Shown: positions 1 to 20,000, counted from the first letter of the stretch. The stretch: 20,000 nucleotides of DNA from an uncultured virus (IMG/VR IMGVR_UViG_3300025057_000006) (IMGVR_UViG_3300025057_000006); one strand, 5' to 3'. Program-made: numbers and translations. Notes: generated by a model from the letters alone, not told the origin.

Positions 1-64
1 ATTTAGTTTAGCAACCATTGACGGTTTTGTATATTGCGTATAGTTTAACAGCTAAAATCAGCGA

Positions 65-421: not shown

Positions 422-425
422 CATC

Positions 426-3683: not shown

Positions 3684-3752
3684 TTAATTAAGACGTTAAG
3701 TAAACACATGTTATTAATTGGCCCTATAGTTAGAAAACCCAAGGAATCTGAA

Positions 3753-5277: not shown

Positions 5278-5279
5278 CC

Positions 5280-5483: not shown

Positions 5484-5492
5484 TATGCTGAC

Positions 5493-5611
5493 ACGTGGAG
5501 CAATACCGCTCTAGGGGTAATAGTCGAAACCCCTTCCACGTTACAAATACGTAGTGCTCACAAGAGCGCGGAAGGAAGCTATGATCCCGGCATGATACAC
5601 CGGGATTTTTT
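5493..5611 (+). ncRNA. candidate structured leader RNA or sRNA
   Basis: Three-way junction ACGUGG/CCACGU, AGC/GCU, AGGGGU/ACCCCU; hairpin GUGCUC-ACAA-GAGCGC; terminal hairpin plus U-run; extended -10-like TGaTATGCT at 5481-5489. Confidence 0.5.
5584..5611 (+). terminator. intrinsic terminator-like hairpin
   Basis: ATCCCGG-catgataca-CCGGGAT followed by a T run; directly abuts GTG 5612. Confidence 0.65.
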
Positions 5612-6286: not shown

Positions 6287-6291
6287 ATAAG

Positions 6292-6374
6292 ATAGAGGTG
6301 CAGTCCCTGTCTGGATACGCCTGGTTAACTCACAGCCCGATTGTCGGTACGCCAGTCACACTGCATCCATCTAT
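6292..6374 (+). ncRNA. candidate structured RNA 1 of the RNA cassette
   Basis: Ends pair (AUAGA-GGUGCAGU with ACUGCAUC-ca-UCUAU); internal CCGA-UUG-UCGG hairpin; TAGAAT -10-like box at 6279-6284. Confidence 0.45.
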
Positions 6375-6375
6375 A

Positions 6376-6445
6376 CGGTCGGTAGTCTATTGGTAAGGAC
6401 AGGCAGACAATGCACGGAAAGCTGGTTCGATTCCAGTACGACCGA
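6376..6445 (+). tRNA. tRNA-like element / pseudo-tRNA with aberrant anticodon arm
   Basis: Acceptor CGGUCG/CGACCG plus A; U8A9; D arm GUCU-AUUGGUAA-GGAC; T arm GCUGG-UUCGAUU-CCAGU; only 20 nt between D and T arms, folding as GCA-GACAA-UGC. Confidence 0.7.
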
Positions 6446-6446
6446 T

Positions 6447-6533
6447 AGGGTACGACAAGGAACGTCGTATTAAACGAAGAGTCCCCTCGGCTGCATCGTA
6501 GATGATCGTAGGCAGACACTCTCGCCCTCCCTT
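6447..6533 (+). ncRNA. candidate structured RNA 2 of the RNA cassette
   Basis: Hairpin UACGAC-AAGGAAC-GUCGUA, linker UUAAAC, stems AGAGU/ACUCU, CUGC/GCAG, CAUC/GAUG, closing AGGG/CCCU. Confidence 0.45.
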
Positions 6534-6534
6534 C

Positions 6535-6608
6535 CGGGGATTAGCGCAGTTTGGTAGCGCATCTGCTTTGGGAGCAGAGGGTCGCAGGTTCAAATCCTGC
6601 ATCTCCGA
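6535..6608 (+). tRNA. trnP: tRNA-Pro (UGG)
   Basis: Full cloverleaf: CGGGGAU/AUCUCCG, D stem GCGC/GCGC, anticodon arm UCUGC-UUUGGGA-GCAGA, T arm GCAGG-UUCAAAU-CCUGC, discriminator A; CCA not encoded. Confidence 0.97.
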
Positions 6609-6661
6609 TATCAACAATTTCAATAAAAGCGTTATATTAATTGCACGAATAAAAACTATGA

Positions 6662-6916
6662 ATGCCCTGGAGAGATTCCAAGGAACGCATCAATAAGAAT
6701 CGACAGAAGCTTCTGGAGTACAAGAAAACTCTGCAGTGCGAGAAGTGTGGGTTGGATGATCACCGTGTTTTAGAATTTCACCACGTAAGTGACAAGGATA
6801 ACAATATTTCATCCATGGTGAACCACGGCTATGCCTGGAGCAGAGTGGAGGATGAGATCAGTAAATGTATTCCGTTATGTTGCAACTGCCACAGGCTTGA
6901 GCACTGGGTTAATTAA
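6662..6916 (+). CDS. small HNH endonuclease-like protein
   Basis: CEKC ... LEFHH ... LCCNCHRLEH is a zinc-bound HNH pattern. Confidence 0.8.
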   Translation: MPWRDSKERINKNRQKLLEYKKTLQCEKCGLDDHRVLEFHHVSDKDNNISSMVNHGYAWSRVEDEISKCIPLCCNCHRLEHWVN

Positions 6917-9339
6917 CGGAAGAATAATCCACCCGCTTCTGTAAGGCCTAGCTCAGGAAAGCGTACTTCACCAAAGGGAGTGGGGAATTTCCACCTGGAA
7001 CCACGACGACGAGCAGCTTCCGCTCTAAGCAACTGCGGATTTGCGCTTGGACCTTGCGCGTTATATGCCTCAGGACTTTGTTGACGTTCTATAGATTGTT
7101 GTCGTGTAGATGGTTTAGCACTTCCACCTAATTGAGAAACAACAGCAACAGGATTCGCAACGCGTAAAGCACCAGCTGCTACCGGAAGAACAGCAGCAGT
7201 TGTCGCAGGCGCTAAACGTTGAGCGAGTCCAGCACCTGCCCCGACTACTGGAGCAGCCGCTGTCCCAATTGCATATTCAGTAGCAACTTGACGAGCTGCT
7301 TTACCTGCATCACCTTGTTCAATAGCTTGCCTGAAAGCTGGATCAAACAATGGAACAGAGCCTGCAAGGTCTGTTGTTGTGTTAAAACCGGTTCGGATTG
7401 CTTGCGTAATGTTTGGCAGAGCTTTATTGTATGCTTCGATTTGTTTTGCCTTAGCGGCCACATCAGTTAATACTTCTCTCGGATCTATGCCTGCACCTTT
7501 AAATACGTTAGTAGTAAAGTTAACAGGATCTAAATTAGCTTGCGATCCCAAGTTTGGAGGATTTAAGTACATTCTTCCTGTTTGACTTAAGTCCAATGGA
7601 GCAGCAGCCGTAACCCCGCGCATTCCAGGTTGAGCACCACGCGCTGTAGTAAATGCTTCACCAAGAGTTGTTTTAAGGTTTATATCATCTTTTATTTCTT
7701 CAAAGAAATTTGGATTGTTGTAAGGTGATATCAATCTATTGCCCACGTCACTAACTGCTACAGTAACAGGCGCAATGGTACGTGGATAAGGTCTACGTGG
7801 TTCAGGTCCAAGGGTGTCTTCTAAAACATCGCGTGTTGTACGACCACCAATAGCTTTATCCCCTAATAAAGCTTGATACACACGCAAATCTCTTTGGAAT
7901 TCAGGGGACTCTACTTCAATTCCTTGGGCTTTAAGACTGTTAATTGTTTCAGGTAAATAACCTACTTTGCTTATTTCTTTTAAAGCATCCGCTTTGGCCT
8001 CCCATTGTTTAGGTGCCTCCCTTAAAGCAACTTGCTCTGGTGTATTAAAAAATTGCTCTTCTTTTTCAATTGCAGCTTTAAGAGCAGGTGTTGCTTGGTT
8101 AATTTTATTTTGTAGTTCTTGGAAGTATAGACCTTGATCAACTGTAGGAACTAAGGGTGCATTCATTAAAGATAGTGAGTTTCCATAAGGAATGCCACCT
8201 TTGCTGTATCCACCGGCAATTCTCTGTGTGGTTACACGAGGAGGATTGAGATTGGACCATGTTTCAGGATTATTGCCCATGAATTCATCAAGGGCTTGAT
8301 TGCGTTTGGTAAAAGCTTCACGCGTGAGCGCATCGTCCCATTCAACAGAACCTCCACGTTTAAATGCATTCCAGTTTTGATTTACTTGATCATAAAACTC
8401 TTGACCTCTTTGGGCCATAGTGTTGAATTCTTCTTGGCTAATAGGAGGACTCAAGAAAGATTCAACTCTGTTTTGATCACGGAACAACGAACTTCCTTGT
8501 GCAGCACCACGTTGTTGAACAAGAGTTCTACCAGCCATTCTTGCTTGTTGACGTGCAGCATCCAACGCCTTATCGTAAGCTTGAGCAGGATTCAAATCAT
8601 CAAGCCACTCCAATTGTTGAGTTAATCCTTTAAGGCCAATACGATTTGTCCCTAATGGAGTTGCACCAACATTTTCTGCAATTGTAATTAGCTCTTCTCC
8701 GCGCAACGTATTACCAACATTGGCAAAATCATGCATGGCATCATGCAAAATTAGTTCATTTCCATATGGTTGATATGTTTGCGGATTTTTTACTTGAGCT
8801 TGTCCTGGTTTTTGTCCTGGAAAATATTGATCTAAAAATCTTTGAGCCCGTTCGTAAACAGTTTCTGTGTCTCTGATATCAACAGGTGCTCCTGTAAAGT
8901 CAAACTCTTTACCAAACGGTGAGGCTGTTGGTGCATAGTCTGTATCTTGTAAATTAAGTACAGGAACACGTTTAGGATATAGTTCTTTAAAGTCAGTAAC
9001 AGGTAAATCACTAGTTGGACCCTGGGGATATACTATGTCAATCCTAGGTTGACCAGGCACTGAATAATTTGGGAAAGCAATAGGTGCATTTCGTGTTGGA
9101 AAACCTGGGCTTAATAGTCCAGCCGGACCTCTATTTGCATAGTTTTCTGCTGCAAGTTGACTTGCTTTTTCAGCAGAAAACTGTGTAGCTTGTTGTGTTA
9201 ATTGTTGTTGTTTTGCAGCTTCAAATTGAGCAGCGCGATCATATAAACTTTGCAGTTCACCTGCCAAAGGTTGACCAGTTTTAGCTGCGTTAAGAATTGC
9301 AGCGTTTAGTTTTACGCGTTCCGCAGGAGTTAATTCCAT
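6913..9339 (-). CDS. large hypothetical protein (~808 aa), Ala/Gln/Pro-rich, possibly virion-associated
   Basis: Long uninterrupted ORF; ATG 9339 overlaps the TGA of the Dps-like gene (track start TTG 9342); contains HDAMH-x11-E. Confidence 0.8.
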   Translation of the reverse strand: MELTPAERVKLNAAILNAAKTGQPLAGELQSLYDRAAQFEAAKQQQLTQQATQFSAEKASQLAAENYANRGPAGLLSPGFPTRNAPIAFPNYSVPGQPRIDIVYPQGPTSDLPVTDFKELYPKRVPVLNLQDTDYAPTASPFGKEFDFTGAPVDIRDTETVYERAQRFLDQYFPGQKPGQAQVKNPQTYQPYGNELILHDAMHDFANVGNTLRGEELITIAENVGATPLGTNRIGLKGLTQQLEWLDDLNPAQAYDKALDAARQQARMAGRTLVQQRGAAQGSSLFRDQNRVESFLSPPISQEEFNTMAQRGQEFYDQVNQNWNAFKRGGSVEWDDALTREAFTKRNQALDEFMGNNPETWSNLNPPRVTTQRIAGGYSKGGIPYGNSLSLMNAPLVPTVDQGLYFQELQNKINQATPALKAAIEKEEQFFNTPEQVALREAPKQWEAKADALKEISKVGYLPETINSLKAQGIEVESPEFQRDLRVYQALLGDKAIGGRTTRDVLEDTLGPEPRRPYPRTIAPVTVAVSDVGNRLISPYNNPNFFEEIKDDINLKTTLGEAFTTARGAQPGMRGVTAAAPLDLSQTGRMYLNPPNLGSQANLDPVNFTTNVFKGAGIDPREVLTDVAAKAKQIEAYNKALPNITQAIRTGFNTTTDLAGSVPLFDPAFRQAIEQGDAGKAARQVATEYAIGTAAAPVVGAGAGLAQRLAPATTAAVLPVAAGALRVANPVAVVSQLGGSAKPSTRQQSIERQQSPEAYNAQGPSANPQLLRAEAARRRGSRWKFPTPFGEVRFPELGLTEAGGLFFR

Positions 9340-9902
9340 CAACCATTCCGCAGTGTAGCCTTAATAAACCAAGCAGCTTTAAAGGCTTCACCACAGAGGT
9401 CAGCCATGTAGTTCTGGATATCAATGGCACCCACCTTGGCAGCAATGGGCTCCAGTTTTTTGGTTTTCATACCCAGCTCTTCAAGGTTCTTGTAGTACAC
9501 CGCGAGCATATCGGTGCCCTTGTAGCTGGTAACGTGTTGGATCACAGGGCCAGCATCAGCCAGCCCCCTGGCGCACATGGGCATCAAGTAGTCCATGCTG
9601 CGGATAAACTCACCCAATGTATCGAACTGTTCCAGATGAGCTTCGTATTGGTCTTTAAGGAACCCGTGCACACCGAGGAAGTTACCCCCCTCGTAGTTCA
9701 GGTGAATGAGATGGGCCTGTGTCTGAAGTTCCTTGAGGTAGGAACAAAGGGAGATGCACTGTTGGATGAACCCACCAACGTCACCACCTTTTGATTTGCT
9801 CGGAGCCTTGGGTTTAGCTTGAGGCTCTGGTGCCACCCCAGTATTGAGTGGTTCCACCCCCATTTGGGGTGGTTGTTGCGTCTGAAGACCAGAAGTATAC
9901 AT
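9339..9902 (-). CDS. dps: Dps/ferritin-like protein
   Basis: QAHLIHLNYEGGNFLGVHGFLKDQYEAHLEQFDTLGEFIR matches the Dps HWNxxGxxFxxxH...D-xxx-E ferroxidase pattern; Pro/Lys-rich N-terminal tail. Confidence 0.8.
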   Translation of the reverse strand: MYTSGLQTQQPPQMGVEPLNTGVAPEPQAKPKAPSKSKGGDVGGFIQQCISLCSYLKELQTQAHLIHLNYEGGNFLGVHGFLKDQYEAHLEQFDTLGEFIRSMDYLMPMCARGLADAGPVIQHVTSYKGTDMLAVYYKNLEELGMKTKKLEPIAAKVGAIDIQNYMADLCGEAFKAAWFIKATLRNG

Positions 9903-10031
9903 AGCTTTTAATCAGTAATTCTAGTTTATCAAAGAGAAATTTCTTCCCAATCAATTGATGCATAGACATCATCACCTGCGACCTTTTATTACCAACACCC
10001 AAGATGCTTGCAGCGGTTGGAATAACAGCTG

Positions 10032-10259
10032 TTAATTATTATTCTTTATTATCTCACTCTTCCATCTTGCACGTAGGTGACCATAATCCCGTGGCTCTGT
10101 TACTGGGACATTAGTTGCGCCACAAATATCACAGGTTCCTTCATGGTATGTAGCACAGTGGTGAGGAGGACCAATATATGTTCCACGTTTGTACCATCCA
10201 CCATAAGTTTCTCCGCAAGTGTGACAGATGTAATCAGGATATGGAGGTTCTTTAGTCAT
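10032..10259 (-). CDS. small hypothetical zinc-finger-like protein
   Basis: Two CxxC pairs (CHTC, CDIC); 4-nt overlap with the upstream gene. Confidence 0.7.
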   Translation of the reverse strand: MTKEPPYPDYICHTCGETYGGWYKRGTYIGPPHHCATYHEGTCDICGATNVPVTEPRDYGHLRARWKSEIIKNNN

Positions 10260-10579
10260 TGATCTTGGTTGTGATTGCCAAAGCGCAACATGTCAACAAG
10301 TTCTTTTGCTTTTAAATATTCTTTTTCATGCTGTTGCATATTTTCAAATGCAGCTTTATAAAAAGCTTTATACATTTCTTTACCAGAGATTTCTGTACAA
10401 AACTCTGCAATTGTGTCCTCGAAATGTTCTTGTACTCTTTCTTTCATTTTTTCTTTAGCTGTTTTGATTTCGGATTCAAATACAATAGGGTTTTTTCGGT
10501 ACCAATCTTGCCATTCTTGGATGACTTCCATTGGGCGATCAATGTCAACAAAGTCCATGATGTTGTAAAAGCGCACCAT
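10256..10579 (-). CDS. hypothetical protein
   Basis: Fits the packed - strand gene run; start uncertain (several Met). Confidence 0.65.
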   Translation of the reverse strand: MVRFYNIMDFVDIDRPMEVIQEWQDWYRKNPIVFESEIKTAKEKMKERVQEHFEDTIAEFCTEISGKEMYKAFYKAAFENMQQHEKEYLKAKELVDMLRFGNHNQDQ

Positions 10580-10622
10580 TAGTATGATGCGCCAAAAGTC
10601 AGTTGTCTATTTATTGTAAAGC

Positions 10623-10919
10623 TTAAGAAACACTAACAGCTTCTTTAATAGATTGTTCTTGTTGTTCTTGAAACAATTTGGCAGCTTCTACCATTTCAAA
10701 GTATTTGTCACGAGCAAAAGGACCTGCTTCGTTCATGCAGAATGCCTGCCACAAACCTGTATACAAACCGTTGTTTCGACCAGAGCATTGATACATATGC
10801 TCCATAAAATCAGCTTTGCGTTGTTCAGATTGTACATTCCAGTTTTGCAGTTGCTCTTTGAGCCAAGGGGTATCAAAAGCACCTGCGGTATTGAGTTTTT
10901 TTGCGAGGTCGTCAGTCAT
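10623..10919 (-). CDS. hypothetical protein
   Basis: Track start 10952; ATG 10919 (MTDDLAKK) overlaps the upstream gene end and is preferred. Confidence 0.7.
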   Translation of the reverse strand: MTDDLAKKLNTAGAFDTPWLKEQLQNWNVQSEQRKADFMEHMYQCSGRNNGLYTGLWQAFCMNEAGPFARDKYFEMVEAAKLFQEQQEQSIKEAVSVS

Positions 10920-11106
10920 CAAACTGGATCGAAGTACAACTGGTAAAGACACCGGTCACGTGACCGAGTTCAAATAATAAATCATCTAGATCGTCCTGGA
11001 GCGCCACTGCAATTTCATCTGCAGTTTTGCCGCCAAAGGAGTTGTATTCAAGTTCAAGATCTACCGCAAAAGATACGGTGAGCTTTGGTACGTAAACAGG
11101 TTCCAT
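10912..11106 (-). CDS. small acidic hypothetical protein
   Basis: 64-aa ORF with AAGGA just upstream; fits the gene run. Confidence 0.65.
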   Translation of the reverse strand: MEPVYVPKLTVSFAVDLELEYNSFGGKTADEIAVALQDDLDDLLFELGHVTGVFTSCTSIQFDD

Positions 11107-11141
11107 TCCTTGTTGTAAGGGTGCAATTACTGTAGCAGTAA

Positions 11142-11405
11142 TTAGTTGCCAAGTAATCTTTCTAAGGAATGTGCCTGATGTTCTTGGTAGTAACCAAGAC
11201 GTTGTTGGATGACGTTGTAATAATTAATGGCAGCGTCAACCATTTCTTCCGCATCCATGGAGGAGGCAAGGTTTTCATTAGCAAGCATGGCTGCTGTCAA
11301 GATGACAACACCATGTTCCATTTTGGAGCCAATGGTCGCGGAAAGGGGAGTGCCATCGTTGGTGAACCCAGCAATTAATTTATTTAAAATGGGATCACCG
11401 CCCAT
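11142..11405 (-). CDS. hypothetical protein
   Basis: 87 aa; AAGGAG Shine-Dalgarno upstream; TACAAT box at 11428-11433. Confidence 0.75.
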   Translation of the reverse strand: MGGDPILNKLIAGFTNDGTPLSATIGSKMEHGVVILTAAMLANENLASSMDAEEMVDAAINYYNVIQQRLGYYQEHQAHSLERLLGN

Positions 11406-11441
11406 GACACTCCTTGCGATATTTACTTATTGTATTCCAAT

Positions 11442-11849
11442 TTATTTACCCGCTTTGGCCAGATAATACCAGTAGGCATTGGTAGCGTTTTGATGAAAAC
11501 GTTTACCCAATAGAAGTTTAAGCTTCTTTTGTTCCAACTCATCAACACGTCCTTCGTTATAGGGAAGGATTTCACCGTGATCTTTGAGCATTTCCATCTC
11601 AAGATCATTCATTTCAATTTGTAAATCGAAATCTTTTACTGCGTGTTGATGGCAGTTCATCTTGATACGTGCATCTTCTGCATCAGCAGGAGCATCAATC
11701 TTCTGGTAGAAGCTCTCCTGGATACTCGGATGTTTCCAGTTCCATTCGGGGTTCTGCGTAGATGCGTTTGGATCGGGCACTGTATTCTTGAGTGACTTTG
11801 ACTCCAGTCGGTAGTTGTTGACCGTTTTGATAGGCGCTGCGTATGGCAT
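11442..11849 (-). CDS. hypothetical protein (start uncertain; overlaps Gp157 gene)
   Basis: The C-terminal ~95 aa look like a real helical protein and fill 11442-11695; frame is open to 12095; candidate ATGs at 11849 and 11660. Confidence 0.55.
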   Translation of the reverse strand: MPYAAPIKTVNNYRLESKSLKNTVPDPNASTQNPEWNWKHPSIQESFYQKIDAPADAEDARIKMNCHQHAVKDFDLQIEMNDLEMEMLKDHGEILPYNEGRVDELEQKKLKLLLGKRFHQNATNAYWYYLAKAGK

Positions 11850-12396
11850 CAATGTTTGGGAGGATTTTTGTTTTAGTGGAAGGTTCTGTTCTATCAGATA
11901 GAACTTCTCCTGACATTGAACGTAACACAACTCGTTTGGTTGTGGTGACTTCTTCTGCAACGCAATAAAGTTCTCTTTCTTTAGTGTGCCAAAACTCTGG
12001 GTCCGAGGAGATCTCGATTGTAAGCTCTTTCTTTTTAACAAGGGTGAACTGGTAATTGCGACCGGTGATCTTATTCGAATCCTGTGGCAGGACACGACGC
12101 AGATAACTTAGCAGGTTTTTGAGCGATCGCAGCTGGGATTCATGGTGACGCTTGGCTTGCACAATGAGATCGTTTTCTTTTTTGATGCGTTCGAGCGCAT
12201 CTTCATGCGACGCCATTGCGTAATAGATACGATCAATTTTTTCTGACCGTAAGTTGGCGCAAGTTTCAAGCTCTGCTTTAGCCAGTTCCTGGGATTCAGG
12301 AGTGAGAAGAGGGAGAGACTGCTCGAGAGCAGCATAGTGTTTGTATAAATCAAAGACGTTTAGTTTACCAAGTTTTGTTTGAGTAATTTGTGACAT
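11695..12396 (-). CDS. Siphovirus Gp157-family protein
   Basis: N-terminal coiled coil (EKIDRIYY...IKKE...LKNLLSYL), KITGRNYQFTL and C-terminal PNIDAIRSAYQNGQQLPTGVKV are typical Gp157 architecture. Confidence 0.75.
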   Translation of the reverse strand: MSQITQTKLGKLNVFDLYKHYAALEQSLPLLTPESQELAKAELETCANLRSEKIDRIYYAMASHEDALERIKKENDLIVQAKRHHESQLRSLKNLLSYLRRVLPQDSNKITGRNYQFTLVKKKELTIEISSDPEFWHTKERELYCVAEEVTTTKRVVLRSMSGEVLSDRTEPSTKTKILPNIDAIRSAYQNGQQLPTGVKVTQEYSARSKRIYAEPRMELETSEYPGELLPED

Positions 12397-12399
12397 GGT

Positions 12400-12513
12400 T
12401 TAATTGAATTGAGATTGAATTTTGTTGAGCATGTAGGTCAGCAGCATACCTGCCGCTGCCCAAAGAAGATCTTTCATCACCGGAAGAACGGTGGCAAGCA
12501 AGGTTTCGAACAT
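12400..12513 (-). CDS. small membrane protein (37 aa), not in ORF track
   Basis: Hand translation MFETLLATVLPVMKDLLWAAAGMLLTYMLNKIQSQFN; TTCAACTTCAACTC leader; stop 3 nt before the Gp157 ATG. Confidence 0.65.
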   Translation of the reverse strand: MFETLLATVLPVMKDLLWAAAGMLLTYMLNKIQSQFN

Positions 12514-12532
12514 GAGTTGAAGTTGAAGTGTG

Positions 12533-12560
12533 TGGTCAGTTTTACGTCATGACCAGGACG
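12533..12560 (-). promoter_or_regulatory. repeated pseudoknot motif, copy A
   Basis: CGUC-CUGGUCAU-GACG-UAAAAC-UGACCA; P1 CGUC/GACG, P2 UGGUCA/UGACCA. Confidence 0.7.
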
Positions 12561-12585
12561 GCAACCCTGCAGGGTTTGTGCTTGG

Positions 12586-12966
12586 TTAGTCTACCAGGCC
12601 TGACAAGCCCTTGTTTTTTGCCTCAAGTGATTCAGCAAAGTAATCGGTAAGCCCATCGACCTTGGCACTGAGAGACTGGACCTCTGCCATGAGTTCCTCT
12701 CTGGTAGGAGAGATAGCAAAGATGTCAGCCGTAGCTTCTTTCAAAGCCTCAGGGTTATTTGCTTTTTGGTAACGCCGGCAGTCGTCATTGGTTGTGTACA
12801 CAGCTTCCTGGTACATATCCAAGACAGTTTTAAAGTCAATGTTACCGACACCTTCTGTAGTCAAGATGTTGCAAGTGTCAAGGTAAAGCTTGGCAGCAAA
12901 CCGTACGTTCTTATGGAAGAACTCAGTGTACTGCTCAGAAGAAAGGCCGTAAGAATCAATCGACAT
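12586..12966 (-). CDS. hypothetical protein
   Basis: Track start 12996; ATG 12966 (MSIDSYGL) overlaps the upstream gene end and is preferred. Confidence 0.7.
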   Translation of the reverse strand: MSIDSYGLSSEQYTEFFHKNVRFAAKLYLDTCNILTTEGVGNIDFKTVLDMYQEAVYTTNDDCRRYQKANNPEALKEATADIFAISPTREELMAEVQSLSAKVDGLTDYFAESLEAKNKGLSGLVD

Positions 12967-13153
12967 CGCACTGAAGAGCGTTGTAAAGTGCATCAATCAT
13001 AAAGGTCTTTTGACCTTCTTCACCAAGGGATGTCCAGTATTCCAAATCTGGATCTGTTTCATCCCAATTGATGTGAATGGTCATGCTGCCATCTTCTTCA
13101 TCAATACATTCAATCTTGAGCTTTTCGATCCAACTCAGATTCAACATGGCCAA
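12956..13153 (-). CDS. small acidic hypothetical protein
   Basis: 65-aa ORF in the packed run; start uncertain. Confidence 0.6.
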   Translation of the reverse strand: MAMLNLSWIEKLKIECIDEEDGSMTIHINWDETDPDLEYWTSLGEEGQKTFMIDALYNALQCDVD

Positions 13154-13319
13154 TAAGAACGTTGATTGCGTAGTCTTCTTGGTGCATTTTAAGGTCAGCA
13201 GCTAGCTTGACAAGTTCCCAGTGGGTATCTTCTGGGATGTCAAGTTCGTAGCGAAGGTGACCGATCTTCATGGGTTGCGTTGCAAGTTGGCGTGCGTATT
13301 CAAGAATGTCGTCAGTCAT
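13110..13319 (-). CDS. small hypothetical protein
   Basis: 69 aa; ATGA overlap with the upstream gene. Confidence 0.65.
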   Translation of the reverse strand: MTDDILEYARQLATQPMKIGHLRYELDIPEDTHWELVKLAADLKMHQEDYAINVLIGHVESELDRKAQD

Positions 13320-14257
13320 TTCTTAATAGCCGATTTGAGCTGAGGAAGTGAAGTACCTGGGAAAGGTGTGTAACCAGCCTCCATCATATTGAAAAACAAA
13401 TCCCATGCATCATGTTGTGTAAAAACTTCTTTTGGTTTGTACGTACGCCAATGAGTAAGAGGGGCCTGGGCTCCTGACTTGGTGTGCAACAAAACAAAAC
13501 GACCATTACTTGTATGGTCAGTCGGAGGAGCATACCACCAAGCAACACACTTGTCAGGTGTACCACTAGGGCTAGCATTCCTTACTTCAGTTCGTTTGCA
13601 AAGAAGCTCGCGATATTTGGCAAACCAAGTCAGATGGATGCACCATGGTCTAAACCCCTGGACTTCTTCCTGGAAAGTAGATAAGTTGTTGAGTTGACGC
13701 TGAAACGACCCACACGAGCATGTAGGTTCGCTAGACACCGGCTCTTGTTCGGCAGAGTCATCCAATTCACGATCAAGATTAATCGCCCGATTTGGAAGCC
13801 GCATCCCGTCCGGTGCAACCAAATGCCCAATGTCCGTTTGGTCAGATTGGAGGAGGGCTGTAACTTTTGCTGGGTCGGATACGTGTATAAACTTATCTGC
13901 CCAGTGGTTTTGGAGTTGTGCATTTGAGGTTAAATGTCCGAGTGCGTGTGAGTAGTTCCAGCCCTTAAACAGTATGTAAGCATTGTTATGCCATACACTA
14001 GGGCCACGATAATTAGGGCCAAGATACGAAAAGAAATCTTTGAGACGATGGGTATAAGAACTGTATGCAGTTTTAATTAAGTCCCGTGAATAAGTTTGCT
14101 CAGTACCATCGCGACGCACCACGATGCAATTGTCATCTCGCAAATAAATCCCAGTGATTTCGGAGTCATCAAAATCTTGATAAGCACGGGTTATGTTAGT
14201 ACGTGTGTAAATACAAGCTTGTGCAGCGTTGAGTTCAAGTTGAGTTTGCGTATTCAT
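13316..14257 (-). CDS. SWIM zinc-finger domain protein
   Basis: CSCGSF ... WCIHL gives the CxC-xn-CxH SWIM pattern. Confidence 0.7.
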   Translation of the reverse strand: MNTQTQLELNAAQACIYTRTNITRAYQDFDDSEITGIYLRDDNCIVVRRDGTEQTYSRDLIKTAYSSYTHRLKDFFSYLGPNYRGPSVWHNNAYILFKGWNYSHALGHLTSNAQLQNHWADKFIHVSDPAKVTALLQSDQTDIGHLVAPDGMRLPNRAINLDRELDDSAEQEPVSSEPTCSCGSFQRQLNNLSTFQEEVQGFRPWCIHLTWFAKYRELLCKRTEVRNASPSGTPDKCVAWWYAPPTDHTSNGRFVLLHTKSGAQAPLTHWRTYKPKEVFTQHDAWDLFFNMMEAGYTPFPGTSLPQLKSAIKK

Positions 14258-14269
14258 GATTGATTTGAG

Positions 14270-14461
14270 TTAGTGGTTTTTGAAATAGTCTGCTTGTAAC
14301 CGCTCCTCTTTGGCACGGTTATAAGCATGTTTGCCCATGCGGTAAGCACCAAGCATAACGGCAGCCCAGGCCACCGGTGTCGCAATGGTAGCAGCAAAGG
14401 CACCAGCAATCAAGGCAGTAGCACCAGCCGTTTTAATTGCGGCTTTTTCTTCAGGTTTCAT
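14270..14461 (-). CDS. small membrane-associated hypothetical protein
   Basis: Ala-rich hydrophobic segment; ATG 14461 (MKPEEK) preferred to track start 14479. Confidence 0.65.
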   Translation of the reverse strand: MKPEEKAAIKTAGATALIAGAFAATIATPVAWAAVMLGAYRMGKHAYNRAKEERLQADYFKNH

Positions 14462-14543
14462 GTGCTGAATTCTTAACACAAATGGAAAGTTTTGTTCAAG
14501 ATCAAAACGTTAAGTAAAATAGTTTGTAACAACTTAATACTTT

Positions 14544-14810
14544 ATGGAAGAAATTAAGTACGTTCCATTGACTCAGTTTCAAATTGAACCAACACTTGAT
14601 GATAAGTTCTGGCTAGAAAAAGTTAAAAGATCAATAGAAGAATGTAATTCAGTAAGTACATTGAAAGAAATGGCGACCTTGCTTGCGCAGATCGCCACAA
14701 ATCGTCAAGGTGTGATTAGGGGATTGATTCAAGACATGTTCATCTTCAACAATGTTGCAGTCGAACCAGATGCTGTAAACAATCCCCAGGTTCCTGGGTT
14801 AGAAGGATAG
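14544..14810 (+). CDS. hypothetical protein (lone + strand gene)
   Basis: 88-aa ORF filling the gap; TAAAAT box at 14515-14520. Confidence 0.7.
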   Translation: MEEIKYVPLTQFQIEPTLDDKFWLEKVKRSIEECNSVSTLKEMATLLAQIATNRQGVIRGLIQDMFIFNNVAVEPDAVNNPQVPGLEG

Positions 14811-15899
14811 ATCTTCTCCTGTCATTTCATCACGAGCAGGCAATGCTTTTACATCTACTGCGTCTGAAGTACGAGAGACGGGAAGAATCTCAACACCTTC
14901 TTTAATTCCATAGGCACCACCAAGGCGTTGTGCATCTTGGCGGGAGTGTTGATTGATGTAATCATCAAACATTTCCTGCATCTTCCAGGTTGATTCACGA
15001 TCTTCATCGGGAATGCTGAGGCGATTAAGAGATTCAATCGCTTCATCCTGAGAACTGTAGTCAGGAATTTCAAAGGATTCAATAGCGCAGATTTCTACGT
15101 TATTGGCGCCACGCATTTCGTTGGCAAGTACAGGAGCAAACACTGTCGTAGCATAAAACTTTTCATTGAATGCCAGAGGAACCTCAGAGTCCAGAGCTTT
15201 GCTTAAGCACTTAGACATTTCCTTTTCGTACAGCTTTACCTTATCGGATACGTCTGTACCGTTAAGACCCTTAAGTGTTAACACCATAGGAATTTTGTGG
15301 GCACGCTTATTGTCCTGGGTCAGAATGTAGACCAGGTATTTAGTGCGCACACTGTACTTACGTTTGTACATCTCACCTTTGCTATTGGCAAGATCAGATG
15401 CAACCTTGTCATTATCAAAAAGTTCTTTGACTTCTGGGTGCTCAAACGTTCCAATTGTTTGGCGCATTCCAGTAGTTTCTTCTACCATCAAGGGAGAACG
15501 CAACAAGATCTGAACACGAGGTTCAATAAAGTTGAGTCCTTCTTCAACTGAAGTATTGGGAGCCATGCCGAATGTTTGCTTGTAGCCCCAGATAACTGAA
15601 CCTTTTTGAAACTGATCTTCAGTTGCAGTCCATCCACAGGAATCGAGGTCTGATTTACGGATAAACCATCCTCGGACTTTTGATTTGTTGAGGGGTTGAA
15701 TTGTGACAAGGTTTTGATAACCAGAAACAAATTCTTTGGATTGGAACATCTTAAAAGAGTCCAGTCCCCTGGTAGCCAAGGCTGATGTTTTTTTGGTAGT
15801 CATTTTCTTAAGAAGTTTCGGAGAAGGGGCAGAGGTTGTTTCAGCTTCGAGTTCATCCATCCAGGATTCACTCATCATGTCAGTTGGAGTAACAGGCAT
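14799..15899 (-). CDS. hypothetical protein in replication module (tentatively DUF5895-like)
   Basis: 366-aa ORF two genes downstream of ssb; family resemblance is from memory only. Confidence 0.7.
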   Translation of the reverse strand: MPVTPTDMMSESWMDELEAETTSAPSPKLLKKMTTKKTSALATRGLDSFKMFQSKEFVSGYQNLVTIQPLNKSKVRGWFIRKSDLDSCGWTATEDQFQKGSVIWGYKQTFGMAPNTSVEEGLNFIEPRVQILLRSPLMVEETTGMRQTIGTFEHPEVKELFDNDKVASDLANSKGEMYKRKYSVRTKYLVYILTQDNKRAHKIPMVLTLKGLNGTDVSDKVKLYEKEMSKCLSKALDSEVPLAFNEKFYATTVFAPVLANEMRGANNVEICAIESFEIPDYSSQDEAIESLNRLSIPDEDRESTWKMQEMFDDYINQHSRQDAQRLGGAYGIKEGVEILPVSRTSDAVDVKALPARDEMTGEDLSF

Positions 15900-15920
15900 G
15901 GTTTGTTCGTAGTTAGAGCC

Positions 15921-15948
15921 AGGCCTTTTAACGTCTTACCAGAGGACG
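15921..15948 (-). promoter_or_regulatory. repeated pseudoknot motif, copy B (weakened P2)
   Basis: CGUC-CUCUGGUAA-GACG-UUAAAA-GGCCU; P1 intact, P2 only GGU/GCC. Confidence 0.55.
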
Positions 15949-15953
15949 GGAAA

Positions 15954-16208
15954 TCACTCTACATCGTTGAGTTCATCTTGCTGTAGCTCAAGAAACACTT
16001 CTTTATTGGAATTGTAAAGCTCAAGGTATTGCTTCGAAATTTCATTCATCCGTTCAATGATGTTCAGTTCAAGATGACCAATACCACGTAGGAATTGAAT
16101 CATCTCATCAACAATTTCATCTGTCCCAATTGCTTGGAACTGATGCAACACTTTACGTTTACCATCCTCAAAGAGGAGTGTGAACTGGTCTTCAGCTTGA
16201 GTTGACAT
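15954..16208 (-). CDS. hypothetical protein
   Basis: 84 aa; TGATG coupling to ssb. Confidence 0.7.
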   Translation of the reverse strand: MSTQAEDQFTLLFEDGKRKVLHQFQAIGTDEIVDEMIQFLRGIGHLELNIIERMNEISKQYLELYNSNKEVFLELQQDELNDVE

Positions 16209-17020
16209 CAGAATGGTTCCTCGTCTAGTTCAGGTGCAACGCCATATTGGCCAGGGAGGTCAGGAAGACCACCACCAGAAGTAACATTCCAAGGATCAGT
16301 AGAAACTTGATTTGATGTACCACTATTCCAAAGGGGCTGAACTTCTTGTTCAATACTTACTGTTGTTTGTGGTTCGATAGGTTTGGCCTCATTAACTGTT
16401 GTTTTAGGAGCCAGCGTCATTTTATTGAGCTGGATTTTTGTTTGAGATTTGCGTTCACCATTTGAATCAGACCACGCATCAGTAACAAGACGACCGCGAA
16501 TAGTAATACCAACACCTTTGCGAGTCATATTGGCAAGTAACTCAGCATTGTTCAATCGATCTGTTGCATTGTTCATTGCAAAGAAGTTGAACAGGTCAGC
16601 TTGGTTCTTGCCTGTTGTTACTGAAATTGTTTGATTGCAGATCATTAAACCTGATTCTGTTGTGCGAAATACCCGTGGATCATTGAGATCTAAATTTTTC
16701 ACACAACGACCAGTCAAGATCACATCATTGAAATGTGGAAACTGATCACTAGCAGGCGCGACATTACCGCCATGCAATGAATGAGTGCGTGTATCTAAAT
16801 CGTGTCGCAGTGTTGATCCGTGTAAATAAATGTGTGCACCTTTTGGCGCTTTAGCAAAACGCTCTGCATTCTTGCCATAAAGATTGAGTTCGATGTGAGT
16901 TGGGGCTTTATTACCAACAGCAGGTAATGCAATCATGCATCGCATTGCTGTCGAAGTTTCCGATATAAAAACTTCTCTTGGTTGTTCAAGTGTTTGAGCG
17001 TAGGCACAGACAAAGTTCAT
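16208..17020 (-). CDS. ssb: single-stranded DNA-binding protein with two tandem OB-fold-like domains
   Basis: Second half NDVILTGR...KGVGITIRGRLVTDAWSDSNGERKSQTKI is canonical SSB; first half repeats the pattern (LYGKNAE...KGAHIYLHG); acidic tail ELDEEPF. Confidence 0.85.
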   Translation of the reverse strand: MNFVCAYAQTLEQPREVFISETSTAMRCMIALPAVGNKAPTHIELNLYGKNAERFAKAPKGAHIYLHGSTLRHDLDTRTHSLHGGNVAPASDQFPHFNDVILTGRCVKNLDLNDPRVFRTTESGLMICNQTISVTTGKNQADLFNFFAMNNATDRLNNAELLANMTRKGVGITIRGRLVTDAWSDSNGERKSQTKIQLNKMTLAPKTTVNEAKPIEPQTTVSIEQEVQPLWNSGTSNQVSTDPWNVTSGGGLPDLPGQYGVAPELDEEPF

Positions 17021-17041
17021 GTTGTGTAAAGCAAGGTGGTA

Positions 17042-17069
17042 AGGCAGTTTAACGTCATACCTGAGGACG
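17042..17069 (-). promoter_or_regulatory. repeated pseudoknot motif, copy C
   Basis: CGUC-CUCAGGUAU-GACG-UUAAAC-UGCCU; P2 AGGUA/UGCCU. Confidence 0.7.
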
Positions 17070-17074
17070 GGCGA

Positions 17075-18934
17075 TCAGTGAGTATCGTACCAGGTTCGGC
17101 CAACTTTGGCATCCCCTTCAATGCCGCACTGAAACCCAAAAAATTCCTGAGCTTGCGGGAAAGCTTTTAATGCGCTATCTTTCACCAGCTCCACGTGTTG
17201 CGGTTTGCAACTAAGCTGGATTTCGTCATGGATCATGGCGTGTTGAACCCAGTCAACCCCATAAACAAGACCAGTTTCTTCAACGTTTTGATGCAGATTA
17301 ATTACAACTTGCTTCATGATGATTGCACCAGCTGATTGCAACAAAACATTTAGTGCTTTGAAATCAGATCGACAATAAAGAATTCTTTTGTCTAATCCAT
17401 ACAAACAATTGTTTTTAGTAAGATTCTTATTTAATTTTTCCCGCAGTTCTCTCAATGCTGGCACACCATCCATGAATGAATCGATTGCAGTTCTTCCTAG
17501 TTTGCGCAGAACAAATTCATCTTTTTCATTCGGATCAATAATAGTACCGGCTTTAACTGCACCACATCCATACAACATTCCATATAACAAACGCTTACTA
17601 ATATCTCTGGTGGCCACGCCAAACTGTTGTCGGTTGTATTCGTGAATGTCAACCGTATCATCAGTCACCAAAGCAGCGTATTCTCCGTTGTCCCAGAGGG
17701 CAAGGTATCCAGCAAGGCAACGTAGTTCAAGTGCTTTAGCGTCAACACCAATGAGGTTCCACCCGTTAACAGCAGAGAACAAACTTCTGCATTCTTTTCC
17801 ATAGGGTGAGTAAGCTGCTGGGACTTGACCCATATTTGGATTGCGGTGTGAACAGCGCCCAGTAATGCAACCGTTAGTAGTAACATCACCGTGGATACAA
17901 CCAGTGTCATTGTTGTAAAGATTACGCCAAGAGTTGTTGCCTTCTGAAAGCTGACCAAGACGTTTCTTGACCAGCATGTATTCAGCTAAAGGTTTTGCTT
18001 CTGGATAGGGCAGTTGTTCTATAACTTCATCATTAAGAATTGGATTTCCTTTTTCAGTTGTCTTTTCAGGTGTCCATCCATACTTGTTTTTGAGTCGATC
18101 AACGATTTGATCACGAGATCCAGGATTGAATTCTTCATAACTAACTTTGGTGAATGGCTGGCCTTTGACATAACCTCTTTTAGCATTGTTTACTTTTGGA
18201 ATAAATACAGTTTCATGCTTAATAGGAGGAAATACTTCCTTTAATTTGTTTTCAAGTTCTGTTTGTTTTGTTCGTAGATCATCCATGAGATCAAGAGCTG
18301 CATCCATATCAAAAGGAAAACCCGATCTAACTTGTCTATTAATTGCCAACGCAAAGTCGTGCTCCAATTTAAGAGCTGGTTGCGGATAGTTTTGAACACT
18401 GATGTGTTCCCAAAGTTTTGTCGTGACTGCAACGTCTTGTTTGCAGTATTCCAACATCTCTTCAGAATATTGGGAGAAGTCTTTGAAGTCGATCTTATGA
18501 TCGGCCAGTCTCCATCCCCAAGCCTTAAGTGATGCGGATCCACGGTTCTTCGCTGGAACCTGCGGATATTGTTCCGTGTCAAGGTCATAGAGTTTCTCCT
18601 TAGGCCAGATCAATCGTGTGCAGATAAGAGTGTCAATGATTTGTGCATTGCTTTTGAAGTCATGTAACTTCTCAAGCACAGGGCAATCGTAGAAGATGAT
18701 GTTATGACCAATTAAAACATCAGCGGTTGCCAGATGAGCAAGAGCATCAGCAATGCAATCAGGCCCGTAAGAAAAAGTTTGTTTGGTTGCAATGTCATGG
18801 ATAACAATGCAGTAAATTTTTGTAACTTTGTCATAAAGGCCGTCGCTTTCAAGGTCAAAGATTAAGTACTTATCATTTGCGGAAACGGGACTCATCTTGA
18901 ATTGAGAGTTCTTTACAGGCAAGGTCTTCGTCAT
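17075..18934 (-). CDS. polA: family A DNA polymerase, T7-type (3'-5' exonuclease plus polymerase)
   Basis: ExoI FDLESDG, ExoII GHNIIFYD, ExoIII YCKQD, motif A DAKALELR, motif B RDISKRLLYGMLYG, motif C IHDEIQ; true start may be ATG 18895. Confidence 0.95.
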   Translation of the reverse strand: MTKTLPVKNSQFKMSPVSANDKYLIFDLESDGLYDKVTKIYCIVIHDIATKQTFSYGPDCIADALAHLATADVLIGHNIIFYDCPVLEKLHDFKSNAQIIDTLICTRLIWPKEKLYDLDTEQYPQVPAKNRGSASLKAWGWRLADHKIDFKDFSQYSEEMLEYCKQDVAVTTKLWEHISVQNYPQPALKLEHDFALAINRQVRSGFPFDMDAALDLMDDLRTKQTELENKLKEVFPPIKHETVFIPKVNNAKRGYVKGQPFTKVSYEEFNPGSRDQIVDRLKNKYGWTPEKTTEKGNPILNDEVIEQLPYPEAKPLAEYMLVKKRLGQLSEGNNSWRNLYNNDTGCIHGDVTTNGCITGRCSHRNPNMGQVPAAYSPYGKECRSLFSAVNGWNLIGVDAKALELRCLAGYLALWDNGEYAALVTDDTVDIHEYNRQQFGVATRDISKRLLYGMLYGCGAVKAGTIIDPNEKDEFVLRKLGRTAIDSFMDGVPALRELREKLNKNLTKNNCLYGLDKRILYCRSDFKALNVLLQSAGAIIMKQVVINLHQNVEETGLVYGVDWVQHAMIHDEIQLSCKPQHVELVKDSALKAFPQAQEFFGFQCGIEGDAKVGRTWYDTH

Positions 18935-19106
18935 TGCTGTTGATCCACGTCAAGATTTGTTGTGCACCCGCACGATACGGATGAGAAAAAATCTTGTTTA
19001 AAGCTACATCAGAGTCTAGTGGAATCAATTCAAATTTATTTGTTTCGTTGTTGGCAGTAATGGCATGTGGTGTGCCCCACCGCCAACAAGCAATGACGTA
19101 ACTCAT
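18873..19106 (-). CDS. hypothetical protein
   Basis: 77-aa ORF between GP88 and polA; 3' end overlaps the polA start. Confidence 0.65.
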   Translation of the reverse strand: MSYVIACWRWGTPHAITANNETNKFELIPLDSDVALNKIFSHPYRAGAQQILTWINSNDEDLACKELSIQDESRFRK

Positions 19107-19152
19107 GGATCAAATGAAAGACAGACAGATGTTATCTGATTTCATTTGATCC
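19107..19152. repeat. 13-bp perfect inverted repeat (hairpin)
   Basis: GGATCAAATGAAA (19107-19119) and TTTCATTTGATCC (19140-19152), inner CAGAT/ATCTG. Confidence 0.8.
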
Positions 19153-19168
19153 GCAAGTGTCTACAGAA

Positions 19169-19933
19169 TTATTTCTTGTTTGATTTGCCGTATCCAACAA
19201 ATCCACCTTCTTTCTTACGTTGAGATATTGCTTGACTTGCTTCGCTGCCAGCACGTTGTGATCCATGAACTAGCAATGCAAATGGCTTATTACCAAGACA
19301 ATGGCTGTCGTCATGGTCAATTTCAAGACCAAGCTTTGCGGCTTGATCTTCTGTGTAAACAACGTGAGCAACCCTGGTAAATACGTTTGAATACTTATCG
19401 ATCAGGTAGTCGAGCGTTCCCCCGTGAGATGCAGTGAGATAAAAGTTGGATGGGATCATGTCGCGCAAGTTGTACCACATTCCTAATGATTTTGTAAATG
19501 CATAGAACTTCTGTTGTGGCCTGCTTTGGGCCACCATGATCCAAGCCTTCATGTAGTTCTCAGTCCAGAAGTCACCTGATTCATGGATACGAATCAGTTC
19601 TTTAGGCGGTTGCATCAGGAGTGACAGGTCGATCAAGTCGCGCAACAACACAGCTTGGTTCCCATTCATGTGGATGGTTTCACGCAGTAAATCCCAGTTG
19701 TACCAACGTGCTTCCCGCACTGCAGGACGTGTCTCTGCCATAGCAGCAAAGCAACGGAAGTCACGTTCTGCTGTCACACCTGTGTACTGAGGCAAGTCAG
19801 TGATCTGACCAGTAGTGCGATCAGCAAAGGTTTTGCACACACCAGCATGTGGGCAGGCATACCCAGCAGGCAGGTTAAAGATCAAACGATTCTTGAGCTT
19901 GCCGTTGCCAGTGGAAAACTTGAGGAGTTTCAT
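19169..19933 (-). CDS. phage GP88-family protein
   Basis: GNGKL, FNLPAGYACPHAGVC, CFA, RIHESGDFW and FYAFTKS match the Gene product 88 family pattern. Confidence 0.75.
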   Translation of the reverse strand: MKLLKFSTGNGKLKNRLIFNLPAGYACPHAGVCKTFADRTTGQITDLPQYTGVTAERDFRCFAAMAETRPAVREARWYNWDLLRETIHMNGNQAVLLRDLIDLSLLMQPPKELIRIHESGDFWTENYMKAWIMVAQSRPQQKFYAFTKSLGMWYNLRDMIPSNFYLTASHGGTLDYLIDKYSNVFTRVAHVVYTEDQAAKLGLEIDHDDSHCLGNKPFALLVHGSQRAGSEASQAISQRKKEGGFVGYGKSNKK

Positions 19934-19962
19934 GAGTTGAATTGAATGATAAGAAAAACTAA

Positions 19963-19990
19963 TCAGCAGTTTAAGGACATACTGAGGTCC
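19963..19990 (-). promoter_or_regulatory. repeated pseudoknot motif, copy D
   Basis: GGAC-CUCAGUAU-GUCC-UUAAAC-UGCUGA; P1 GGAC/GUCC (compensatory relative to A-C), P2 UCAGUA/UGCUGA. Confidence 0.7.
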
Positions 19991-20000
19991 AGTGTTACAG

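Follow-up and report, generated by a model that had tools for sequence, protein, structure and literature searches.

Why would a phage place the same short RNA in front of several separate units of its replication arm? The question is raised by a stretch of 20,000 nucleotides (nt) from an uncultured virus, IMGVR_UViG_3300025057_000006, here called the window, in which four intergenic elements (copies A to D) share one layout on the minus strand. The initial annotation, made from the sequence alone, read them as an H-type RNA pseudoknot marking a phage-encoded regulon of DNA metabolism genes. We find that the element is an H-type pseudoknot at the RNA level, formed on the mRNA strand and with real covariation in both helices, and that it occurs in very diverse phages. 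By its letters and fold it is a variant of the coremin kind of exoribonuclease-resistant RNA (xrRNA). A directional block to 5′-to-3′ decay, stabilising the RNA downstream, would be the best-supported mechanism, a reading that we hold tentatively.

A covarying H-type pseudoknot on the mRNA strand

The consensus knot spans 28 nt. It has a first helix, P1, of 4 base pairs (bp; NGUC/GACN), a first loop, L1, of a single C, a junction base, U or A, and a third loop, L3, of sequence UUAAAC. In the second helix, P2, bases of the hairpin loop pair with those directly after UUAAAC (U-NNNN-A with U-NNNN-A, 5-6 bp). The window copies are as follows:

12533..12560, minus strand: copy A; P1 12560-12557 with 12548-12545 (CGUC/GACG); L1 C12556; P2 12555-12550 with 12538-12533 (UGGUCA/UGACCA), 6 bp; junction U12549; L3 12544-12539 (UAAAAC)
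15921..15948, minus strand: copy B, degenerate; P1 CGUC/GACG intact; 9-nt loop; UUAAAA-G in place of UUAAAC-U; P2 reduced to GGU/GCC, 3 bp
17042..17069, minus strand: copy C; P1 17069-17066 with 17056-17053 (CGUC/GACG); 9-nt loop; P2 17062-17058 with 17046-17042 (AGGUA/UGCCU), 5 bp including one U.G; L3 17052-17047 (UUAAAC)
19963..19990, minus strand: copy D; P1 GGAC/GUCC, with pairs 1 and 3 changed on both sides; P2 19985-19980 with 19968-19963 (UCAGUA/UGCUGA), 6 bp; L3 UUAAAC

The initial annotation had placed and spelt all four elements correctly, including the P2 lengths (A 6, B only 3, C 5 and D 6 bp) and the covariation of P1 at two pairs, CGUC/GACG in A, B and C against GGAC/GUCC in D. 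The P1 of copy D recurs in loci L012, L027, L028, L029 and L030. Two fixed patterns derived from the window copies themselves, GWCCT-N5-WGWCNTWAAA and GWCCT-N6-WGWCNTWAAA, each matched the window twice, with a mean of 0.00 matches in 200 dinucleotide shuffles each.

The fold was examined on a much wider set, obtained by scanning IMG/VR with the pattern GTCCT-N5-6-W-GAC-N-TTAAAC, which returned at least 131 stretches, 129 of them unique among the matches listed. Since this pattern constrains neither P2 nor the outer P1 pair (the bases flanking GUC on its 5′ side and GAC on its 3′ side, and the letters of loop and tail, are not specified), it allows an unbiased test of pairing. At least five contiguous P2 pairs were present in 94 of the 129 unique matches listed, against about 30 when the tails were permuted among them, and the outer P1 pair was standard in 113 (CG 60, UA 20, AU 17, UG 11, GC 3, GU 2); the other 16 are probably chance matches. 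Over the first five P2 positions of the matches listed there were 73 G.U and 19 A.C cells, and this excess indicates that the folded strand is the gene-sense strand, as had been proposed from the G-U pairs of the window copies.

The 94 pairing-filtered, and in that respect biased, instances were aligned (A1) and converted into a covariance model, R1, in which P2 is the sole modelled helix. The covariance-model search that the initial annotation had suggested as a check was run with R1 over 95 sources, and gave 117 matches, 112 of them distinct. P1, unmodelled in R1, was paired in 98% of the distinct matches; its third pair was U-A in 102 and A-U in 10 and unpaired in none, the switch being compensated in 10 of 10 cases. 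P2 showed changes on both sides at five of its six pairs. None of 500 column shuffles attained the observed covariation score, and slid registers lowered pairing to 14-54%. ViennaRNA, which cannot draw pseudoknots, predicts P1 or P2 alone (-2.2 to -5.6 kcal/mol); both helices are conserved, and the knot is therefore favoured over the single-helix folds. A generic pseudoknot scanner with P1 sequence left free yielded about 1.2 chance matches per shuffled 20 kb, and the covariance model was preferred.

The window comes from a 51.3-kb IMG/VR phage record (CheckV completeness 65%), of which it forms the right part. Positions 1-19768 correspond to G000:C1:31536-51303, and the last 232 bases (19769-20000), including copy D, lie off contig G000, so that the window must derive from a longer or circularised record. 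Under R1, copies A, D and C scored 41.5 (E 6.6e-9), 37.1 and 35.4 bits, A and D being among the 94 seeds, so that their match is partly by construction. Copy B was at noise level (8.9 bits, E 1.2 with filters off), because its UUAAAC-U is now UUAAAA-G and only three loop-tail pairs are left. A scan of contig G000 with R1 gave only A and C at E<=1 (B was not reached, and D lies beyond the contig end); an earlier pattern scan of the contig also found B, and no further convincing copy. The site upstream of the DUF5895 gene, which follows copy B, is still knotted in relatives, e.g. at 29137-29176 of Synechococcus phage S-EIVl, and for this reason copy B looks like a decayed copy.

The statement that the element belongs to no named family stands for Rfam, where it is absent: cmscan against Rfam 15 at E<=10, on 12300-20000 and 17010-17090, gave chance matches only (sbrA, GlsR19, EF0408_EF0409 and Plastid-ndhJ). 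It does not stand more generally, the coremin Xrn1-resistant RNA being a named relative (PMC6546385; PMC10520033). The pistol, HDV-like and theta ribozymes were considered and set aside: their strand order differs, there are no further conserved helices, and Rfam gave no match.

Distribution among phages and placement between genes

The window gene for the single-stranded DNA-binding protein (SSB), used as a query for related loci, identified only two close relatives. The nearest cultured phage is S-EIVl, with 71% identity over 54% of the region. Its whole genome contains six copies of the knot by regular expression and eight by covariance model; all eight lie on the strand of the leftward early/replication arm (25.9-43.0 kb of the record), with none in the structural arm. 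Exactly one copy was found by R1 in each of five other cultured phage genomes scanned whole.

A non-exhaustive survey, in which three natural variants of the knot (three P2 variants) were compared by BLAST with 50,697 phage records, found the motif in 83 records of Staphylococcus phages and in 27 near-identical records of Vibrio phages. Further hosts of motif-bearing phages were Streptococcus, Lactobacillus, Geobacillus (phage D6E), Bacillus, Moorella, Mycobacterium, Arthrobacter, Synechococcus, Microcystis, Nostoc, Acaryochloris and Paracoccus, and there were also gut phages. Firmicutes, Actinobacteria, cyanobacteria and an alphaproteobacterium predominate among the matches listed (60, 3 and 23), and these include no phage of Escherichia, Salmonella, Klebsiella or Pseudomonas. 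Of 5,426 complete E. coli genomes none was matched by the commonest variant, a weak negative from this single query. The phages that carry the motif include Autographiviridae, T4-like phages and siphophages. A 20-base-specific pattern, run over 596 Gb of bacterial genomes, matched only seven stretches, all in contigs of metagenome-assembled genomes (six with at least five contiguous P2 pairs and one with a bulged C), and the motif is therefore essentially viral. It constitutes an abundant, unnamed and well-supported family of structured RNAs absent from Rfam, even if its function should differ from the one proposed below.

In the window, the knots and the open reading frames (ORFs) of the leftward arm are arranged as follows:

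19934..19962, minus strand: leader D, 29 nt, from copy D to the GP88-family gene start (19933)
19933-19169, minus strand: GP88-family protein, profile match confirmed
18934-17075, minus strand: family-A DNA polymerase (DNA_pol_A, polA)
17070..17077, minus strand: polA stop UGA (17077-17075) and 5-nt spacer before P1 of copy C
17021..17041, minus strand: leader C, 21 nt, from copy C to the SSB start codon (17020)
17020-16208, minus strand: SSB
15949..15956, minus strand: stop UGA (15956-15954) of an 84-aa ORF and 5-nt spacer before P1 of copy B
15900..15920, minus strand: leader B, 21 nt, from copy B to the DUF5895 gene start (15899)
15899-14799, minus strand: DUF5895 protein (366-aa ORF)
12563..12576, minus strand: perfect 14-nt palindrome, AACCCUGCAGGGUU / AACCCTGCAGGGTT; 5-bp hairpin with a 4-nt UGCA loop
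12514..12532, minus strand: leader A, 19 nt, G-free and unstructured, from copy A to the ATG of the 37-aa ORF (12513)
ATG at 12513, minus strand: 37-aa ORF, followed by the Gp157-like gene
12396-11695, minus strand: Gp157-like protein, weak, sub-threshold Sipho_Gp157 match

The gene names given initially were borne out for GP88, polA (DNA_pol_A) and SSB, the 366-aa ORF matches DUF5895 and the Sipho_Gp157 match is only sub-threshold; the gaps to the ATG are 19, 21, 21 and 29 nt for A to D, against the approximate 20-30 nt described. Between copy A and the stop of a 135-aa ORF (12588-12586), which are 25 nt apart, stands the palindrome, a small hairpin 9 nt past the stop and 2 nt short of the knot. 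The SSB ATG, 57 nt downstream of the polA UGA, shares its frame, and no further stop separates them, so that readthrough would fuse PolA to SSB; this frame link is probably a coincidence, as S-EIVl has a small ORF in between and does not retain it.

Placement was analysed in 72 unique instances with 400-nt flanks, a pairing-filtered set in which many are S-EIV1-like. The distance from the stop codon of an upstream ORF of at least 60 codons to P1 was below 5 nt in none of 56 instances and exactly 5 nt in 25, making 5 nt both the modal and the minimal spacing; 16 of the 72 had no upstream ORF within 60 nt. The next start codon followed the end of P2 by 20-29 nt in 38 of 72 instances and by less than 15 nt in 4. 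The 20 nt past P2 are depleted in G (2-16% per position, 123 instances), and folding is weak over the 32 nt past P2 (median -0.8 kcal/mol, downstream control -2.85; 54% at -1 or above). Stable upstream folds (<= -6 kcal/mol) were present in 31% of instances and 19% of controls, the hairpins upstream of the knot being terminator-like in phages Javan407 and phiEF-1.1 and plain in S-CRM01 and window copy A. The helicase site of the ribosome is about 11 nt from the first P-site base, and an initiating 30S subunit spans about 20 nt upstream of the start codon. From this geometry and the observed spacings we infer that the knot lies only just beyond the reach of a terminating as well as an initiating ribosome.

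In other phages the units downstream are of several kinds. The knot lies between the portal/minor-head genes and the scaffold and major capsid genes in B166 (a phage of S. aureus), phiEF-1.1 (Lactobacillus), D6E and Javan407 (Streptococcus). A PHROG scan covered 42 downstream ORFs, namely four from cultured phages and 38 hand-picked from 89 unique ones, a choice that excluded clear orthologues of window genes and the majority of cut ORFs. Head scaffolding proteins, from two PHROG families, were next in 7 of the 42, i.e. in 7 of the 13 with a named function; six had other named functions, seven belonged to families of unknown function and 22 had no match. Javan407 adds one more scaffold-preceding copy. 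Knots adjacent to tRNA genes (2-11 nt) occur in several unrelated phage lineages. In Arthrobacter phage Molivia (L144, 1992-2034) an SSB stop, 6 nt, the knot, 2 nt and a tRNA follow one another, and the knot stands 4 nt before tRNA-Asn in the L010 family (L010/L036/L054/L062), 5 nt before it in L090 and 11 nt before tRNA-Arg in L058; in NMeng1 an annotated tRNA-like feature begins a few nt downstream. The knot precedes the SSB gene in the window and in S-EIVl, and in Synechococcus phage S-CRM01 (L158, 1501-1558) it lies about 30 nt upstream of the T4-like gp32 gene, with a P2 of only 3 bp. T4 itself carries its own, different leader pseudoknot at the gene 32 position. The proposal of a regulon of DNA metabolism private to the phage is thus not upheld: the motif is found in very diverse phages, as a single copy in five, and before scaffold/capsid genes and tRNAs.

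The leftward arm is interrupted by a single 88-aa ORF on the plus strand (14544-14810), which shares 12 nt with the end of the DUF5895 gene; an opposite-strand coding sequence is present at the equivalent place of S-EIVl as well. Elsewhere the window contains an auxiliary block on the plus strand (911-3683 and 5612-6286), coding for a family-2 glycosyltransferase, an NAD-dependent sugar epimerase, a DegT-type aminotransferase and a protein of the PHROG 'ferredoxin' family, and a Dps/ferritin-like gene on the minus strand (9339-9902). An 808-aa ORF (6913-9339, minus strand), with no Pfam or PHROG match at the thresholds used, is its largest unexplained gene.

Likeness to coremin and a candidate block to 5′-to-3′ decay

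Coremin is described as a 20-nt motif, GUCCGAAGACGUUAAACUAC, the xrRNA_C of beny-, cucumo- and many other eukaryotic RNA viruses (PMC6546385; PMC10520033). It is built of a 3-bp hairpin, hp1 (GUC/GAC), with a YGAD loop, a conserved 10-nt spacer and a second hairpin, hp2, and a pseudoknot between loop and spacer has been proposed in which a loop A pairs with a spacer U (PMC6546385; PMC10520033; PMC10321173). Coremin halts Xrn1 one nucleotide upstream of hp1 (PMC10520033; PMC10321173).

The 94 seeds agreed with this motif at a mean of 0.82 over the mapped columns, several of the agreeing columns having been fixed by the search pattern, but not those of the loop A, the outer P1 pair or the U that follows AAAC; the disagreeing columns were loop position 2, the D position and A20. 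Both RNAs have the GUC/GAC core of hp1, a loop-closing C-G pair, C as first loop base, A-D as the last two loop bases and the spacer (G)UUAAACU, and the loop A-spacer U pair of coremin corresponds to the invariant A-U pair of the phage knot, kept in 110 of the 112 distinct R1 matches. Both also occupy intergenic or untranslated sites, sometimes in several copies. They differ in that coremin belongs to RNA viruses of plants and fungi and the knot to double-stranded DNA (dsDNA) phages, and in that the phage form has a loop of 8-9 nt, a P2 of 5-6 canonical covarying pairs and no hp2.

Column by column, the hp1 core is G-C in 112 of 112 R1 matches, then U-A in 102 and A-U in 10, then C-G in 111 of 112, and all four window copies possess it, D with A-U at pair 3. 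The spacer has AAA in 94 of the 94 seeds, C in 93 and U in 94, of which AAA and C were partly fixed by the pattern and U was free; copy B departs from it, having A where C is expected and G in place of U. All 94 seeds have C at loop position 1, and the last two loop bases are A (94/94) and U or A, the latter agreeing with the D of YGAD. A20, essential in beet necrotic yellow vein virus, is A in only 7 of the 94 and G in 84, the position lying within the canonical P2. The first two spacer bases vary or take insertions (copy A, Labelle, Molivia, Mwe-JY13 and Edson), and AAA, C and U, the loop-closing C-G pair and the first loop C are kept, which parallels the published mutational tolerance of coremin (PMC6546385). 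In Vibrio phage D456 g1 (L153, ~1495-1530) P1 is UCUC/GAGA, with C-G instead of G-C as second pair; the coremin paper reports the same natural covariation in betaflexiviruses.

A nearer parallel in pairing is the Watson-Crick coremin (xrRNA_WCC), which has the coremin scaffold with canonical loop-spacer pairs and works as a frameshift pseudoknot without hp2 (PMC10321173). It comes from a randomised screen plus two viral candidates and has a 4-nt loop and a very short second stem, S2 (PMC10321173), whereas the phage form is natural and abundant and has a long S2. The phage knot is, judged by its letters and pairing, a variant of the coremin kind and not a strict member, because of its 8-9 nt loop with U at position 2, its long canonical P2 and the lack of hp2. 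No report of this motif in phages was found in the literature, in a search that covered subscription journals thinly and lay outside the coremin supplements, so that an earlier mention is possible. The BLAST searches of one coremin study concern RNA viruses only (PMC10520033), and the words 'phage' and 'bacteri' are absent from the main text of all three (PMC6546385; PMC10520033; PMC10321173).

A block to a 5′ exonuclease, one of several options listed in the initial annotation, has by these comparisons become the favoured reading, to be taken as a candidate and not as established. It is favoured because of the likeness to coremin, the stop of RNase J1 by an xrRNA, the placement and the host range. 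Regarding the second, bacterial RNase J1 is also stopped by a flaviviral xrRNA whose fold is different (PMC5760640).

In this reading each element is transcribed within the leftward polycistronic message and folds into a compact 28-nt H-type pseudoknot whose L3, UUAAAC, would occupy the minor groove along P1. Once an endonuclease had cut upstream, a 5′-to-3′ exoribonuclease, RNase J in most of the hosts concerned, would degrade the message and halt at the knot. The product would be a stable downstream RNA that starts with the knot, its unstructured leader of about 20-30 nt remaining free for ribosome binding. The knot is packed as near to its neighbours as ribosome footprints allow: lying at least 5 nt after the stop and mostly some 20 nt or more before the start, it would be unwound by neither ribosome. 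The nuclease block and the mRNA stabilisation, which we infer from the above, would raise and uncouple the expression of GP88-polA, SSB and the Gp157 module here, and of scaffold and capsid, SSB/gp32 or tRNA units in other phages. RNase J is present in Firmicutes, Actinobacteria, cyanobacteria and alphaproteobacteria, and the host range of the motif largely coincides with this distribution. It is possible, and we put this a little more cautiously than the block itself, that an hp2-less Watson-Crick coremin fold in phages of many bacterial phyla stalls RNase J and perhaps other machines translocating 5′ to 3′.

Short elements that set differential mRNA stability have precedents in the intercistronic RNase III sites of T7 and the 5′ mRNA stabilisers of Bacillus. 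These are simple hairpins or ribosome-binding sites tied to one host enzyme, whereas the phage knot is a conserved pseudoknot common to several host phyla.

Several observations weigh against a decay block. Loop position 2, expected from YGAD or YGNNAD to be G, is U in 91 of the 94 seeds and pairs with the end of P2. The sequence after P2 is unstructured, and the window leaders are G-free or G-poor, where coremin has hp2; this hairpin, directly after the spacer, is required for Xrn1 resistance even in Watson-Crick coremin (PMC10321173). The Vibrio lineage (27 records) has a well-formed copy. Vibrio is not known to have RNase J. A stabiliser would have no obvious use directly upstream of a tRNA (2-11 nt), and the tight 5-nt stop spacing could instead mean a function at the terminating ribosome. 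None of the 24 sequencing runs listed for 12400-19700 is on record as RNA, and the host range derives from a survey with three variants that was not exhaustive.

Alternative functions and significance

The last of the spacing arguments leads to a roadblock or insulator directed at the ribosome, which we regard as unlikely. The knot would lie at the mRNA entrance of a ribosome terminating on the upstream stop, where it would block post-termination sliding or re-initiation, uncouple cistrons, or modulate termination or recoding. The 5-nt spacing, never shortened, is that used by frameshift and readthrough pseudoknots; compaction and the need to stay folded, however, would explain a minimal spacing equally well, and 16 of 72 instances lack the nearby upstream ORF. 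Coremin blocks scanning ribosomes and gives 22% -1 frameshifting, and a frameshift screen with it was functional in E. coli (PMC10520033; PMC10321173). The phage knot resembles the luteovirid -1 frameshift pseudoknots of beet western yellows virus (BWYV) type in being H-type and about 28 nt long, with a short L1, a junction base and an A-rich L3 lying over an S1 rich in G-C. A likeness to the BWYV type, whose knot does not stall Xrn1, was remarked on by the coremin authors (PMC10321173). Unlike those, the phage knot follows stop codons and does not lie inside overlapping ORFs, and slippery heptamers are nearby in only 6 of 123 instances. The open frame from polA into SSB at copy C would also suit recoding, but it is lost in S-EIVl, and the loop of copy B contains an in-frame UAA.

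An operator of the T4 gene 32 type, in which a phage protein such as SSB would nucleate on the knot, spread over the leader and repress replication genes, seems a shade less probable again. The architecture is that described for the T4/T2 gene 32 leader, in which an H-type pseudoknot whose L1 is 1 nt long marks the 5′ edge of an unstructured stretch running to the start codon. Placement on SSB mRNAs, at window copy C, the S-EIVl SSB and the gp32 gene of S-CRM01, would fit such an operator. In gene 32, gp32 binding is the defining function of the element. The SSB gene, however, follows only one of the four window copies, and the same letters recur in phages with unrelated SSBs, which makes a private phage protein an unlikely partner; the knot also stands before scaffold genes and tRNAs in unrelated phages, and is single-copy in five genomes.

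It is rather improbable that the knot serves as a processing or punctuation signal, cut at or near it by a universal host enzyme (e.g. RNase P, with the knot as mimic of a tRNA acceptor arm) or by itself. Such a signal would suit the spacing of 2-11 nt to tRNAs, which is like that in tRNA arrays (2 nt in Molivia, 4 in the L010 family, 5 in L090 and 11 in L058), and the tRNA-like feature of NMeng1. It would also suit the intergenic placement, like that of T7 RNase III sites, and a strand order like that of the acceptor-arm pseudoknot of turnip yellow mosaic virus. Column counts in the 94 seeds, however, reveal no conserved CCA or T-loop-like element after P2, and no ribozyme family of Rfam was matched.

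A promoter or terminator acting as double-stranded DNA, with no RNA fold, is very unlikely. A nearly invariant, -10-like TAAACT overlaps L3 and P2, and in the annotation of phage B166 a BPROM promoter covers the motif, but there is no conserved -35, so that the sigma-70 arrangement (-35 and -10 at 16-18 bp) is lacking, and phages with different RNA polymerases (Autographiviridae, T4-like phages and siphophages) carry the motif. For a terminator, the motif follows stop codons and has U-rich tracts after P2 in AT-rich phages; most copies, however, have no U tract, and a canonical terminator-like hairpin already stands before several of them. Compensatory changes in both helices and the preference for G.U over A.C would be meaningless in duplex DNA.

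Least probable of all is the small riboswitch once offered as an option, here taken as of the preQ1-I kind (RF00522), since the likeness in size and H-type topology to the smallest known aptamers, in the A-rich L3 and in conserved bases clustering at the helix junction is outweighed by the lack of any Rfam match even at E<=10 on 81 nt, of an expression platform (P2 hides no ribosome-binding site or Shine-Dalgarno sequence, the start codon lying 19-60 nt downstream in unstructured RNA) and of a ligand-linked gene context, the downstream units (SSB, scaffold, tRNA, HNH, methyltransferase) being unrelated and sharing no metabolism.

To our knowledge, exoribonuclease-resistant RNAs have so far been known from eukaryotic RNA viruses. 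If the decay-block reading is true, the phage knot would be the first natural xrRNA from viruses of prokaryotes, and RNA viruses of plants and fungi would share one RNA solution with dsDNA phages, by reuse across kingdoms or by convergence. Phages would thereby set differential stability inside their operons, boosting scaffold/capsid, SSB and tRNA units, and the knot might in addition weaken those RNA-degrading defences of the host that recruit RNase J. Should it work like coremin, it would be a natural, portable 5′ protector of 28 nt for bacterial RNA decay and a useful transcript-stabilising part for the engineering of Gram-positive bacteria and cyanobacteria, and it would explain how scaffold and capsid proteins are over-produced from single late operons.

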